Shown here one piece after another: positions 2,400 through 6,799 of a DNA stretch of 64,000 nucleotides. Below the pieces are notes generated by a model, which saw only the letters and a program-made list of their open reading frames with translations, did not search any database and was not told the origin of the DNA. The position numbers and the translations under genes were made by a program. The stretch is from Escherichia phage VB-EcoM-WM, in sequence record PQ014731.1; one strand, written 5' to 3'. How positions within the stretch are numbered: the first letter of the stretch is position 1; every line of letters begins with the position of its first letter.

Positions 2400-2445
2400 T
2401 TTATTTTTAGATGGCCTTGACTCCAGGGCCATCAATAAAGTAAAC
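2400..2445 (+). promoter_or_regulatory. conserved intergenic element copy 1 (T-run, GATGGCC-TTGACTCCAG-GGCCATC hairpin, AATAAAGTAAAC)
   Basis: Near-identical to 3021-3067 and 6751-6799; hairpin loop carries a TTGAC -35-like hexamer. Confidence 0.55.
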
Positions 2446-2478
2446 TAGTCTCAACTAAGCGAAAAAGGGGGCTTTAAG

Positions 2479-2598
2479 ATGAGCACTACACGCCAATACA
2501 CAAAGGTAACTATTATCGTTTGCGTTGTCGGTTACATCCTGGCGCAAATGTTAATGAGTAGCGCCAACAGTTTTGCAAAATTTTTCTTAAATTTTTAA
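2479..2598 (+). CDS. hypothetical small hydrophobic peptide (39 aa)
   Basis: ATG after AAAAAGGGGG RBS; hydrophobic core. Confidence 0.35.
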   Translation: MSTTRQYTKVTIIVCVVGYILAQMLMSSANSFAKFFLNF

Positions 2599-2626
2599 TT
2601 GACAAGCTAACCTAAATCGGTATACT
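2599..2626 (+). promoter_or_regulatory. sigma70-like promoter (TTGACA-16-TATACT)
   Basis: Hexamers and spacing read directly. Confidence 0.5.
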
Positions 2627-2677
2627 TAAACACGTAAACGGGAAAACTTCCCAAAACACAAAAAAGGAGAAAACACC

Positions 2678-3019
2678 ATGACTACTATGACCGCCGCAGA
2701 AAAAGCTATGCAGATCGCCGCGCTGAAAAAACAGATCGCAGATCTTGAGAACAAGATCGATAACTTTGAAATCGACGAGGACAAGTACGACGAAAACTAT
2801 GATGAATGGTTAGACGAGATCCACGGCGAAATTATGATCGGTAACATTTCTTTTCTTCCGTCGCGTATCCTCAAGGAGTTAGATCCTATCGCTTACCGCT
2901 GCGGATTTAGCGACTACATCGACAGCCTAGATATTGAGGACGATGAGGAATACCAGGAATTGCAGACAGAGCTGGAAGAAGTGAAAGAGGAGCTTTCAGA
3001 GCTGGAAGAAAACGAGTAA
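2678..3019 (+). CDS. highly acidic early protein (113 aa)
   Basis: ORF with AAGGAGAA RBS; very D/E-rich C-terminal half. Confidence 0.6.
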   Translation: MTTMTAAEKAMQIAALKKQIADLENKIDNFEIDEDKYDENYDEWLDEIHGEIMIGNISFLPSRILKELDPIAYRCGFSDYIDSLDIEDDEEYQELQTELEEVKEELSELEENE

Positions 3020-3020
3020 A

Positions 3021-3067
3021 ATTTATTTTTAGATGGCCTTGACTCCAGGGCCATCAATAAAGTAAAC
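3021..3067 (+). promoter_or_regulatory. conserved intergenic element copy 2
   Basis: Same hairpin element as 2400-2445. Confidence 0.55.
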
Positions 3068-3106
3068 TTTACACTGTTAACACTGAACTAATGAGGAGTT
3101 AAAACC

Positions 3107-3352
3107 ATGGCAGCACTAATCACAAAATATTATGCGCCCACCAACACCAAAAGCGCCCGTATCATGGTAAAAGGCTTCGGACGTAAAAAGGTCTACACCT
3201 GGGACTATTCCCTAGATATGGAAGACAATTATACCAACGTAATGACTGATTTTATTAATGATCTGAATAAACAGATCTTAACCGACTACAAAGTAACCGA
3301 TATTGCTTACATAGGTGAAGGCGGGATCTGTTTTGTAGGTATTGTGAAATAG
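3107..3352 (+). CDS. hypothetical early protein (81 aa)
   Basis: ORF with GAGGAG RBS. Confidence 0.6.
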   Translation: MAALITKYYAPTNTKSARIMVKGFGRKKVYTWDYSLDMEDNYTNVMTDFINDLNKQILTDYKVTDIAYIGEGGICFVGIVK

Positions 3353-3428
3353 TTATTTTTTCGGTGGTCCTGGTTGCAGGGCCATCTATAAAGATAATTT
3401 ATTAACACCATGAAAGGAGAAAGTGCAC

Positions 3429-3782
3429 ATGATTAGCGGGACTAGTTTTATTATTGGCGCTATTGCTACGGCTTTAATTGTAAACAAGATCCAGGATAAA
3501 AAGGAAAGAGGAAGTACCGCCCTTGCAGAATATCCATTTTGGACATTCAACGATAACGAAGATTATATTATAAAGTATAAAAATAAAGAAGGTGACCAAG
3601 TAACACCGCGACCGATACCGGCTTACAAAATGCAGGAAACACTATACCGCTTGGAGGCGGGCGGCGCAAAAATTGTTGACTTTTGGGGATACGATCACAC
3701 AGATCGGGAAGGTATAAAGCGCCGTATCCGGGCTATTCAGGCCAATATTGAAGTTAGCAAGGGGGGAATATATGAAAATTAA
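3429..3782 (+). CDS. hypothetical protein with N-terminal hydrophobic segment (117 aa)
   Basis: ATG after AAAGGAGA RBS; the ORF track start at 3423 is an upstream GTG. Confidence 0.55.
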   Translation: MISGTSFIIGAIATALIVNKIQDKKERGSTALAEYPFWTFNDNEDYIIKYKNKEGDQVTPRPIPAYKMQETLYRLEAGGAKIVDFWGYDHTDREGIKRRIRAIQANIEVSKGGIYEN

Positions 3783-3969
3783 TTTCGAGAAAATTATAAA
3801 GCGCCCTCATGATTCCGAAGATCTGCCAGAACGCCGACAGCGCAACAATAAACTGAATAAGCCAAAAAGGTTTGGGAAGATCTGGCGGAATCATTATGAT
3901 CGTAAATTGCCCGGCCTACTTTTGGAACGTGAACGACAGGCAGAACGATACCGCCATAAAGACAAATAA
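3772..3969 (+). CDS. hypothetical small basic protein (65 aa)
   Basis: ATG after AAGGGGGG; overlaps the end of the upstream gene. Confidence 0.45.
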   Translation: MKINFEKIIKRPHDSEDLPERRQRNNKLNKPKRFGKIWRNHYDRKLPGLLLERERQAERYRHKDK

Positions 3970-3974
3970 CAACC

Positions 3975-4496: not shown

Positions 4497-4522
4497 TAAC
4501 AAAGAAAACAGGAGAAAATATC

Positions 4523-5146
4523 ATGACCACCGTTAACATTACCACAGGTTACAATTTATCTTTCGACGTGCTGACCGACGAACAAAAAGAAAAAGCCATT
4601 GAAATGGTCCGCGAAAGAGAAGAACGCAGCGGGGATGATTTTTTCGCAGAAAATGTAATTGATTACTACAAAGAATATATCTTTCCAGAGTACGGCCTTG
4701 AGGATACCGAAGTACGTTGGTCCGGCTTTTGGTGTCAAGGCGATGGCGCGTCAATCAGTGCTGGAAACGTGGATTTAGAAAAATTCTTGCGTAAAGTCAA
4801 GGCCCTGACCAAGTTCAGATCAATTCGTCACTTGTTCGGCACAATGCACGATGGCGAACTGTCCGCCAGTATTGAACGCGACAAGTACAGCCATTACAGC
4901 CATGAAAACACTGTAAGCGGGTACATTGATACCACTTGGATAGATCTGACCGCCAAACAAGAAAACAAAGTGGAAGACCTGGAAGAATTGATCACCGAGA
5001 CGGTACGGGAGCTATCCCGCAAGGTTTACGTAGACCTTGAGGAGGCCTATCTAGAACAGTTCACCGCAGAAAACCTGATCGGCCTTATTCAGGCCAATGA
5101 TTGGAGGTTTGATGTCGATGAATATGGTGAGATGACTTTTTCATAA
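4523..5146 (+). CDS. hypothetical early protein (207 aa)
   Basis: ORF with ACAGGAGAA RBS; largest protein of the early block; no family recognised. Confidence 0.65.
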   Translation: MTTVNITTGYNLSFDVLTDEQKEKAIEMVREREERSGDDFFAENVIDYYKEYIFPEYGLEDTEVRWSGFWCQGDGASISAGNVDLEKFLRKVKALTKFRSIRHLFGTMHDGELSASIERDKYSHYSHENTVSGYIDTTWIDLTAKQENKVEDLEELITETVRELSRKVYVDLEEAYLEQFTAENLIGLIQANDWRFDVDEYGEMTFS

Positions 5147-5154
5147 ATAAAGTG

Positions 5155-5182
5155 TTGCAATAACCTAAAAACCTGCTATATT
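5155..5182 (+). promoter_or_regulatory. sigma70-like promoter (TTGCAA-16-TATATT)
   Basis: Hexamers and spacing read directly. Confidence 0.5.
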
Positions 5183-5239
5183 AAAACTCAAGGCGGGCGA
5201 GACGTTTGCCCGCCAACACAAAACAAAGAGGATAACATC

Positions 5240-5620
5240 ATGAAAAATACTACCAAGGCTATTGACACCGTTATGTTTAACCTGGTTACATTCCGTGAAG
5301 ATATGAAAGATCTTCCGCGTGAAACAGTGTGCGACCATATCGAAAACTATCGCAAACTAATCAAAGAGTTGCCATTAAAACGAGATCAGTACGCGGCTAA
5401 CGCTATGCTAAACGCCATGATCAAAAAGATGATCCAGTGTGATCTAACCCTGGCCTATGATTATGCAGGCGGTCGCTTTGCAGTATACAATCAGCCCGTG
5501 CCTGGTATGAGCACCACCGAAGAATTGCACGCGCTCAATCTAAAACAGGACGTGTGGGATAGTATGCCTCGCGTGGTGGTATGGGTAGAAAGCGGGAAGA
5601 CTTACGGCGATAATTTTTAA
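5240..5620 (+). CDS. hypothetical early protein (126 aa)
   Basis: ORF with AAGAGGAT RBS. Confidence 0.6.
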   Translation: MKNTTKAIDTVMFNLVTFREDMKDLPRETVCDHIENYRKLIKELPLKRDQYAANAMLNAMIKKMIQCDLTLAYDYAGGRFAVYNQPVPGMSTTEELHALNLKQDVWDSMPRVVVWVESGKTYGDNF

Positions 5621-5684
5621 TCAGGTAGCAGGCGGCAAATATGCCGCCCTATTGTTGATCAGAACTGCAAAAGGGGTACATAGA

Positions 5685-6056
5685 ATGGAATTTATTATTT
5701 TGGCCGTATTGGTTGCCTTATTTAACGCCTGGATCGCTGGCAAGATGGGAAGATCCGCCTTTTTATGGTTTATTATATCTATTTTCCTGGGGGTGGTTGC
5801 AACTATTGTATTGGTTATCCTTGCAATTGTTGACAAGGGGAATAATAGAAAGGGTAAAGTATTTTCAGACCTGTACGACGCCCAAACGTTCGTCAACGCC
5901 TATTACAGCGATCTTCCAGTCTCCCTACGTTGCAGCCTTGCACAACAGGTTTTCGATGAGGCTAAAACCAGAGATCACGCCCATGAGATTTGTTTAACTG
6001 AGGCGGATCGTTTATTTGAGAGGAATAGAAAATATGTGGGCCAGCCGTTTAAATAA
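5685..6056 (+). CDS. membrane protein (about 123 aa, two predicted TM helices)
   Basis: ATG after AAAGGGG; hydrophobic segments. Confidence 0.55.
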   Translation: MEFIILAVLVALFNAWIAGKMGRSAFLWFIISIFLGVVATIVLVILAIVDKGNNRKGKVFSDLYDAQTFVNAYYSDLPVSLRCSLAQQVFDEAKTRDHAHEICLTEADRLFERNRKYVGQPFK

Positions 6057-6398
6057 TACCACGTTAATTAATCCATTTAGTGAAGATTTGAGGCCAGCAG
6101 CCTGGCGGAATGGATTCAATAACGAAAAATTTACTTTTAGGCCTGATCTTGAGGAATTTTATAACAATGGATCGAACAACGACAGAGATAACTTTTCTCG
6201 TAATGTGCGTGGCGATAATACTCCTGGGGGCCATTGTAAACCACGTCACTGCTAACAGGAGGAAAGGGGGAGACGATGACAACCAAGGATAAGCCCAGCA
6301 CCGACAAGGCGCGCCGCGTTATGGTATGGCTTGAGATTATCGCCCTTGAAATATTGTTAGGCGTAGGGATGTATTTTATCGCCGTACGTACCTGATAA

Positions 6399-6431
6399 CG
6401 GCCCCCGATCCCTGGGGGCCTGACTTTTTTC
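6399..6431 (+). terminator. rho-independent terminator followed by an A15 run
   Basis: GGCCCCCGATCCCTGGGGGCC hairpin plus T-run; A15 at 6432-6446. Confidence 0.6.
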
Positions 6432-6549
6432 AAAAAAAAAAAAAAATTTTTCTTCCGGGGTGTTGCAATCTGGTCCAGAATATGGATAATAACAATCAAC
6501 GGGGAGACACTCCCCACCACACAGACAAAGTTCCAAAAGGAGAAACAAA

Positions 6550-6750
6550 ATGAGCAACAATATCCGCGTTATTAACTTCAAAAAAGAAGAAAAAATAGCT
6601 GTGCTGGTTGATGGTCAAGAAATATTCAAAGGGTATTATGAGGATCATCAGGCGGCGATCAGTATTACCCGCGTAATTGGTTACCATAATTTTTACCCTC
6701 AAGGCGCTGAGGCAGCAGTAAAACGAATTAAGGAGATTGTAGGCCTGTAA
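6550..6750 (+). CDS. hypothetical early protein (66 aa)
   Basis: ORF with AAAAGGAGAAA RBS. Confidence 0.55.
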   Translation: MSNNIRVINFKKEEKIAVLVDGQEIFKGYYEDHQAAISITRVIGYHNFYPQGAEAAVKRIKEIVGL

Positions 6751-6799
6751 AATTTATTTTTAGATGGCCTTGACCCCAGGGCCATCAAATAAAGTAAAT
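6751..6799 (+). promoter_or_regulatory. conserved intergenic element copy 3
   Basis: Same hairpin element as 2400-2445 with one loop substitution. Confidence 0.55.

Follow-up and report, generated by a model that had tools for sequence, protein, structure and literature searches.

The early region of Escherichia phage VB-EcoM-WM (sequence record PQ014731.1) contains a short intergenic element in four copies, which we analysed within a 64,000-nucleotide (nt) stretch of this genome, hereafter called the window. Between about 950 and 9500, the window carries small genes on the + strand, almost all of them ORFans, most of which are preceded by consensus sigma-70 promoters of the form TTGACA-16/17-TAnnnT; after these promoters, the 5' untranslated region (UTR) contains a G/C hairpin. 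Over the segment 2000-7000, the window shares 92-97% identity with the early regions of about 120 E. coli myophages of the genus Vequintavirus (rV5/FV3-like). All four copies of the element are found inside operons, in the sense orientation and immediately 3' of a stop codon, and the next start codon follows after 29-42 nt. The proteins encoded on either side have no known function, with the exception of one T7 gp1.1-like protein.

An earlier note, made from the letters alone, had pointed to near-identical copies at about 2400-2445, 3021-3067 and 6751-6799 and to a variant at about 3353-3400, each just after a stop codon, and both observations were confirmed. The adjoining open reading frames (ORFs) end at 2398, 3019, 3352 and 6750, and the hairpins described below start at these ends or within 1 nt of them. 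A 24-nt core, GATGGCCTTGACTCCAGGGCCATC, occurs exactly at 2410-2433 and 3032-3055 and with one mismatch at 6763-6786, for an expectation of zero by chance (100 shuffles), while the diverged copy, designated copy V, presents the core GGTGGTCCTGGTTGCAGGGCCATC at 3363-3386. A covariance model built from the element family retrieved these same four sites only in the window, the rest being noise.

On the + (mRNA) strand, all four copies adopt the same fold over 49-50 nt (55-60 nt being folded), namely a lower helix of 10 base pairs (bp), rich in A/U, then a 2x3 internal loop, and above it an upper helix of 10 bp, rich in G/C, that is capped by a tetraloop. The minimum free energy (MFE) ranges from -21.4 to -25.0 kcal/mol, with z-scores of about -5.5 to -7.0, and none of 200 shuffled sequences was equally stable. 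Copy 1 (2398-2446, + strand; MFE -25.0, z -7.0; 83.6 bits) begins with the final base of the stop codon that closes the ORF 1994-2398; its lower helix pairs 2398-2407 with 2437-2446, its internal loop consists of 2408-2409 and 2434-2436, its upper helix pairs 2410-2419 with 2424-2433, and its tetraloop occupies 2420-2423. Copy 2 (3020-3068, +; MFE -21.4, z -6.6; 78.2 bits) lies directly 3' of the ORF 2678-3019 and has one A-C mismatch in the lower helix. Copy 3 (6751-6800, +; MFE -23.3, z -6.1; 77.2 bits), directly 3' of the ORF 6550-6750, has an extra A that enlarges the 3' side of the internal loop to 4 nt. Copy V (3351-3399, +; MFE -22.4, z -5.6; 70.8 bits) overlaps the TAG stop codon of the ORF 3107-3352. 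Its upper helix differs from that of the main copies at three positions of the 5' arm, all pairs being kept (A-U to G-U, C-G to U-G and U-G to C-G), and its lower helix contains two flipped pairs (A-U to U-A and U-A to A-U). The asymmetric internal loop, UA/AAU in the main copies and UC/UAU in copy V, is conserved in position. The 7-bp stem GATGGCC/GGCCATC proposed in the earlier note is thus indeed paired, but its extent had been underestimated, as the upper helix reaches 10 bp around a 4-nt loop and the AT-rich flanks form a second 10-bp helix. The - strand folds far less well, with an MFE of -16.8 kcal/mol and of just -8.1 kcal/mol for copy V, because several G-U pairs of the + strand turn into A-C mismatches on the complement.

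To follow the variation of the element, we aligned 30 distinct versions of the four loci, drawing on 16 further Vequintavirus phage records and a few viral or metagenomic contigs. RNAalifold independently returned the identical 20-pair structure from this alignment. Across about 20 Vequintavirus genomes, standard pairs account for 99.0% of the 600 pair cells, a proportion that drops to 35-57% if the 3' partners are shifted by 1-3 columns. In the lower helix, four pairs display two-sided changes that keep the pairing (AU/GC/GU, UA/CG, UA/AU/GU/GC and AU/UA), four upper-helix pairs vary on one side, exclusively via G-U, and the covariation score of 0.195, versus 0.108 for shuffled alignments, was reached by none of 500 shuffles. 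One compensatory change concerns the same orthologous site in different genomes: copy 1 of rV5_ev156 has an A-U pair where the others have G-C. The variable columns are unevenly distributed: 1 of 40 in each upper arm, 7 of 40 and 10 of 40 in the two lower arms, 10 of 16 in the tetraloop and 34 of 52 in the 13-nt spacer downstream, while the proteins flanking the element are merely about 83-90% identical across most of the genus. Since pairing is kept and the helices are constrained, the base-paired structure is the selected feature, and since it relies on G-U pairs of the sense strand, its simplest reading is an RNA structure carried by early mRNAs. We are highly confident that this conserved RNA hairpin is real.

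The three main copies can also be read as promoters, of the form TTGACN-18-TAAAYT. The hexamers are TTGACT (2417-2422) and TAAACT (2441-2446) in copy 1 and TTGACT (3039-3044) and TAAACT (3063-3068) in copy 2, with an 18-nt spacer in both, and TTGACC (6770-6775) and TAAATT (6795-6800) in copy 3, where the extra A brings the spacer to 19 nt. TTGACT-18-TAAACT matches the consensus at 9 of 12 positions, and a T-rich/AT-rich tract, TTTATTTTT, lies upstream in all three. The consensus promoter TTGACA-16-TAAACT at 1921-1948 (+), listed as P194 in Table S4 of rV5, has the same -10 context as the element, AAGTAAACT(AG); the context AAGTAAACTAG of this promoter is that of copy 1, and the corresponding contexts in Justusliebigvirus loci are ATAAAGTAAACT in JLBYU50 and AGTAAACT in muut. 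The earlier proposal of a -35 box inside the hairpin loop is half right, as the TTG is paired in the stem (U-G, U-A and G-C), and the promoter spacing proposed for TAAACT holds at 18 nt in copies 1 and 2, becomes 19 nt in copy 3 and finds no counterpart in copy V, which has no TTGAC. We also considered the invariance of the A and C of TTGAC in the loop as a proof of constraint on the -35 box, an argument dropped when more genomes left the A as the one invariant base. On the minus strand at the element, no promoter or terminator was found. Judged from these sequence features, it is somewhat probable that the three main copies function as promoters; the promoter reading cannot apply to copy V, as it lacks a -35.

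A terminator scan of both strands did not report the element, though it reported true terminators at 3978, 5631, 6400 and 7201. Like intrinsic terminators, the element forms a G/C-rich hairpin after a stop codon, but it differs from them by having no U-tract on either strand, whether after the upper helix or after the complete hairpin (tails AAUAAAGU on the + strand and UAAAAAUA on the - strand). By its sequence, the element is not an intrinsic terminator, and the annotation of two copies as 45-bp terminators in the record of phage Murica (NC_041871) is probably wrong. We found no terminator-like site between the promoters at 1921 and 2599 and position 3978, nor between the promoter-like site at 6463-6490 (+; TTGCAA-16-GATAAT) and 7201. 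Read-through transcripts from 1921 should therefore contain copies 1, 2 and V, and transcripts from 6463 should cross copy 3 before reaching the terminator at 7201-7226.

The anatomy of the hairpin can be compared with that of RNase III substrates, which in E. coli typically comprise two helical turns and in which internal loops restrict the enzyme to one bond, leaving a protective 3' hairpin (Pertzev & Nicholson, PMC1540722). In the distal box, UA/UG is optimal and UA/CG weakens binding, while the preferred proximal box has G-C at position 1, A-U or U-A at position 2, A-U at position 3 and no G-C at position 4, G-C at positions 2 and 4 acting as antideterminants (PMC1540722). The element provides about two turns of quasi-continuous helix through its 10 + 10 bp stacked across the 2x3 internal loop, and this loop could, on structural grounds only, limit cleavage to one strand and leave a 3' hairpin. 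All main copies present a UA/UG distal box (U27-A34/U26-G35) under the closing pair G28-C33, in the same register as T7 R1.1. In the proximal box, placed by the inferred register, position 2 is an A-U pair, as preferred, position 4 is an A-A mismatch, hence not an antideterminant, and positions 1 and 3 are pairs other than the preferred ones.

The early RNase III sites of phage T7 (R0.3, R0.5, R1, R1.1 and R1.3) were folded with the same tool, at positions that we take to be those of Dunn & Studier 1983. Their upper helix measures 9-10 bp and their loop 4-5 nt, the internal loop is asymmetric, the lower helix has about 9 bp, and the energies are -22 to -24.5 kcal/mol. The element resembles them in its intercistronic location directly after stop codons of a polycistronic early transcript, in the lengths of both helices, in its small loop, in an internal loop with an extra nucleotide on the 3' side and in its stability. 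It differs from them in the size of the internal loop, 4x5 in T7 and only 2x3 here, and in the putative promoter spanning the hairpin, as no host promoter does so in T7, yet the T7 promoter C starts within the R1 hairpin region. When the element model was run against 6 kb of T7, its only matches were R0.3 (11.5 bits) and R1 (11.4 bits), and their insignificant E-value of about 5 indicates a shared architecture and not homology. By analogy, the element may be an RNase III-type processing or stabilising site, an option that we favour over a plain exonuclease barrier or an attenuator, while rating its own chances as somewhat below even.

The copies of the element also mark the ends of exchangeable gene cassettes. 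The segment between copies 1 and 2 (2447-3019, +) comprises an ORF of 39 amino acids (aa) at 2479-2598, a promoter TTGACA-16-TATACT at 2599-2626, a 5'-UTR hairpin at 2640-2652 and a 113-aa ORF at 2678-3019. This cassette (620 bp) is absent from ECP32, phiWec189 and contig L023, where the 405-nt gene is followed by the 246-nt gene and where the junction consists of a single hybrid element whose left flank is that of copy 1 and whose right flank is that of copy 2. The right half of the segment, together with the element, recurs in the Justusliebigvirus KKE7M as a cassette consisting of a canonical promoter, the 113-aa gene and the element, inserted where muut has a single TTGACA-16-TAAACT promoter. 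The left crossover falls in the -35/spacer region of the two homologous promoters and the right crossover inside AGTAAAYT, so that the KKE7M element occupies the position of the muut -10 box, with the 11-nt distance to the conserved 5'-UTR hairpin kept. This Justusliebigvirus intergenic site (L002 4570-5100, L154 1460-1560 and L155 1170-1560) hence exists in three states, with promoter-bounded cassettes: empty in muut, occupied by the Vequintavirus-derived cassette in KKE7M, and occupied by an unrelated cassette with a 72-aa gene in JLBYU50. Comparison of these genomes shows the copies of the element to be recombination linkers through which ORFan cassettes are deleted, inserted and exported. 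Some loop variants are common to the copies within one genome, which suggests gene conversion among them.

The element was found in 120 phage records, at about three BLAST-detectable places per record, all of them Vequintavirus with the sole exception of the one Justusliebigvirus. A BLAST search of 5,426 complete E. coli genomes gave no match, hence the element was not copied from host sequence. Rfam contains no family for it at the gathering threshold, and at a permissive threshold only 'rhtB' matches were obtained, at 23-24 bits versus a cut-off of 55 bits. When the window and the Justusliebigvirus loci were searched with the covariance model, no additional diverged copies came to light, and pattern scans of IMG/VR and of a metagenome collection gave mostly chance palindromes, plus a few extra Vequintavirus contigs. 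Distant syntenic relatives were sought via the flanking proteins without success: the 81-aa flanking protein has homologues in unrelated phages only, and the 134-aa and 99-aa flanking proteins are restricted to the genus. The covariation described above is consequently drawn from within-genus variation.

The closest described system is that of the promoter-early stem-loops (PeSLs) of T4-type phages, which are repeated composite promoter/stem-loop cassettes of hyperplastic early regions (Arbiol, Comeau & Krisch 2010, PMC2839356; Comeau et al. 2014, PMC4122927). PeSL stem-loops can overlap the -35 or the -10 box and contain G-T pairs, ORFan cassettes are lost or gained when PeSLs recombine, the crossovers mapping to the -10 box and the loop or close to them, and one cloned PeSL stem-loop reduced reporter expression about as much as a strong terminator (PMC2839356). 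The element shares with PeSLs its nature as a small repeated intergenic cassette extending from a stop codon to the next ribosome-binding site in an ORFan-rich early region. Three copies, by sequence, carry candidate sigma-70-like -35 and -10 boxes with an AT-rich tract upstream. The element also shares with PeSLs a stem-loop overlapping the promoter boxes (the upper helix and loop hold the -35, and the 3' strand of the lower helix is the -10), and gene-cassette insertions and deletions generated by recombination between copies. Unlike PeSLs, which belong to T4-type myoviruses, it occurs in Vequintavirinae and in one Justusliebigvirus; its hairpin is a 20-bp two-helix structure enclosing the UP-like tract, the -35 and the -10, instead of a short poly-G/poly-C stem; it has no terminator tail, and one copy is hairpin-only; and each genome holds no more than 4 copies, which belong to a single sequence family. 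In the rV5 genome paper, no promoter and no terminator is listed for the element sites, and in the literature we found no paper connecting PeSLs with rV5-like phages and no description of the element.

We propose that the element is a PeSL-like composite in which an intercistronic RNase III-like processing or stability hairpin is superimposed on a sigma-70 promoter and which also serves as a recombination linker, an explanation to which we give about an even chance of being correct. Transcripts reading through from an upstream promoter would form the hairpin, which would then act as a processing or stability signal. Most likely, an RNase III-type enzyme would make a single cut at the 3' side of the internal loop, at 2436/2437, 3058/3059 and 3389/3390 if the register of T7 R1.1 applies. 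The upstream cistron would then end in a protective 3' hairpin, and the fates of neighbouring cistrons would become independent of each other. From the embedded promoter, transcription would start anew some 25-35 nt before the next start codon; in the layout of this promoter, the UP-like T-rich tract would be the 5' strand of the lower helix, TTGACN the top of the upper helix and the loop, and TAAAYT, after the 18-nt spacer, the 3' strand of the lower helix. Copy V would be hairpin-only, and the 50-bp repeats with promoter-like ends would serve as recombination linkers for ORFan cassettes. A further proposal, which we regard as a credible if rather unlikely one, is that the element is dual-coded: as DNA, it would be a sigma-70 promoter, and as RNA, its TTG would lie in the RNase III distal box and closing pair and its -10 in the 3' strand of the lower helix. 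If this were true, cut and re-initiated transcripts would give downstream mRNA 5' ends within about 15 nt of one another, the upstream cistron would receive a protective 3' hairpin, and the element would be a portable 'cut-and-restart' punctuation mark that is also a linker for cassette exchange between phage subfamilies.

Several observations weigh against the composite explanation. On the promoter side, the spacer of 18 nt (19 nt in copy 3) is suboptimal compared to the 16-17 nt of the phage's canonical promoters, and the -35 bases located in the loop vary among genomes (TTTACT, TTGATT and TTGATA), which implies that the conservation of the TTG is accounted for by the stem alone. Copy V keeps the same two-helix fold through compensatory changes with neither TTGAC nor a -35, and in phage C9 (an UNVERIFIED record; L049 9250-9290) copy 3 has lost about 12 nt (AGTAAAGTAAAT), corresponding to the -10 and the 3' strand of the lower helix, this being either a natural hairpin-truncated variant or an assembly error. 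On the RNase III side, the distal box of copy V is UA/CG and not UA/UG, positions 1 (U-A) and 3 (G-C) of the proximal box, by the inferred register, are both non-preferred, there is no sequence homology to the T7 sites, and a literature search found no Vequintavirus transcriptome. The covariation itself derives from one genus and few independent events. The spacer length, the paired TTG with its varying neighbours and the -35-less copy V would all suit an element that is an RNA hairpin only, for intercistronic processing or as an exonuclease barrier, with a merely incidental resemblance to a promoter, the AT-rich strands mimicking the UP and -10 sequences and the TTG being needed for pairing, as would the invariance of the 3' upper arm, which in a promoter would be mere spacer. 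Against this stand the improbability of finding by chance TTGAC at the right distance from a TAnnnT hexamer, the -10 context AAGTAAACT shared with canonical promoters, and the KKE7M element placed exactly at the site of the muut canonical promoter, at the same distance to the 5'-UTR hairpin. We consider a hairpin without promoter function a credible but rather unlikely alternative. The promoter element put forward in the earlier note thus stays plausible for three copies, on the 9/12 match, the canonical -10 context and the KKE7M position, and fails for copy V, which has no -35.

An attenuator of the PeSL type, whose hairpin would stop or attenuate read-through while the embedded promoter restarts transcription, seems distinctly unlikely. 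It would agree with the 45-bp terminator labels in NC_041871, with the terminator-like effect of the cloned PeSL stem-loop and the ability of PeSL stem-loops to overlap -35 or -10 boxes and include G-T pairs (PMC2839356), and with a second composite at 8650-8700 of the window, which is a genuine terminator-type hairpin with a -35-like loop. However, the element lacks a U-tract after the upper helix (AAUAAAGU) or after the full hairpin and is absent from the terminator scan, and termination has no need of a covarying A/U lower helix or of a fixed asymmetric internal loop. The earlier note had also offered a protein-binding site, and a DNA operator GATGGCC-N10-GGCCATC, bound by a dimeric phage or host regulator that would occlude the -35 and switch the promoter off after the early phase, could explain the perfect 7-bp inverted repeat over the -35 and the invariance of both arms in all main copies. 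Half-sites whose centres are 17 bp apart, as here, fall on different faces of B-DNA, however, and the covariation of the AT-rich flanks is that of a helix, G-U pairs included, while the - strand folds far worse. Copy V, moreover, changes the left arm only (A>G, C>T and T>C), losing the DNA symmetry while keeping the RNA pairs via G-U, and on these one-armed changes we rejected the operator, whose probability we deem very small. Similarly slight is the probability of a DNA-level recombination or replication signal, such as a cruciform or a single-strand hairpin acting mainly in cassette exchange or priming. Recombination end-points coincide with the copies in several genomes, also across subfamilies, and a target for a recombination protein was suggested speculatively by the authors of the PeSL work (PMC2839356), yet 50 bp of identity suffice for homologous recombination without a dedicated signal, all four copies are sense-oriented right after stop codons in operons, and the G-U-containing pairs are preserved by selection on the transcribed sense strand. 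The interpretation given in the earlier note is partly supported, in that its option of a signal acting at the RNA level gains support from the covariation, the strand asymmetry caused by G-U pairs and the strong purifying selection on both helices; the anatomy of the hairpin parallels that of the T7 sites.

Other signals of the region have a related composite design. A 5'-UTR G/C hairpin, GGCGGGAA..TTCCCGCC, follows the -10 of nearly every canonical early promoter by about 10 nt (z -6 to -8), at 1959-1976, 2640-2652, 4476-4494, 5190-5212 and 6503-6517 of the window and also in L002, L154 and L155. This promoter-then-hairpin design, also present in Justusliebigvirus phages, matches the PeSL subclass with a stem-loop downstream of the -10. 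At 8650-8700, the terminator-type hairpin mentioned above reads AAACAGGGC-TTGCAA-TGGTCCTGTTT and is followed by a T-run; its loop is the -35-like TTGCAA, and TGTTATACT follows 16 nt further on. The composite signal at 8650-8745 is kept in five relatives with differing upstream contexts. The transcript predicted at 8699-8745 forms a hairpin of -23 kcal/mol with apparently compensatory differences between genomes, and may be a small RNA. Three occurrences of a 19-nt motif, GGGGAGACAATCACCGGGG, are found at 667-685 (-), 801-819 (-) and 8720-8738 (+), for an expectation of zero by chance; two of them, in inverted orientation, lie close to where the early region begins on the left, and the third falls within the putative small RNA.

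Elsewhere in the window, the last gene of the operon with copies 1, 2 and V (3772-3969) encodes a protein matching the Pfam family Phage_1_1 (T7 gene 1.1 protein; E 1.4e-11), and in T7, gene 1.1 lies just downstream of the RNase III site R1.1. An unusual tract, T6-C-A15-T5, occupies 6424-6455, directly after the terminator at 6400-6420. No convincing ORFs occur over long distances in the segments 9500-12000 and 1-560, which have many short direct and inverted repeats; they probably match the 'non-coding' box of the rV5 genome map and are possibly an origin or regulatory region. At 58393-58617 lies a group I intron (Rfam, 92.7 bits), and five tRNA genes are clustered at 55399-56119. Among the phage records, the collection MG0656xx includes 17 'Campylobacter phage' entries, many of them UNVERIFIED, that are near-identical to E. 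coli Vequintavirus and whose host label is doubtful.

The element represents no new class of biology, as both the composite promoter/stem-loop cassette and the intercistronic RNase III site are already well documented. For annotation, it is a signal that the promoter and terminator catalogue of rV5 misses, in a group of rV5-like myoviruses that is used in phage therapy and biocontrol. If cleavage by RNase III proves true, T7-style mRNA punctuation would extend to an unrelated group of myoviruses. On the composite explanation, the element would illustrate concretely how the processing of transcripts and their re-initiation can be fitted into 50 bases by large virulent coliphages, in signals that double as recombination linkers moving ORFan cassettes within the genus and between subfamilies, from Vequintavirinae to Stephanstirmvirinae.

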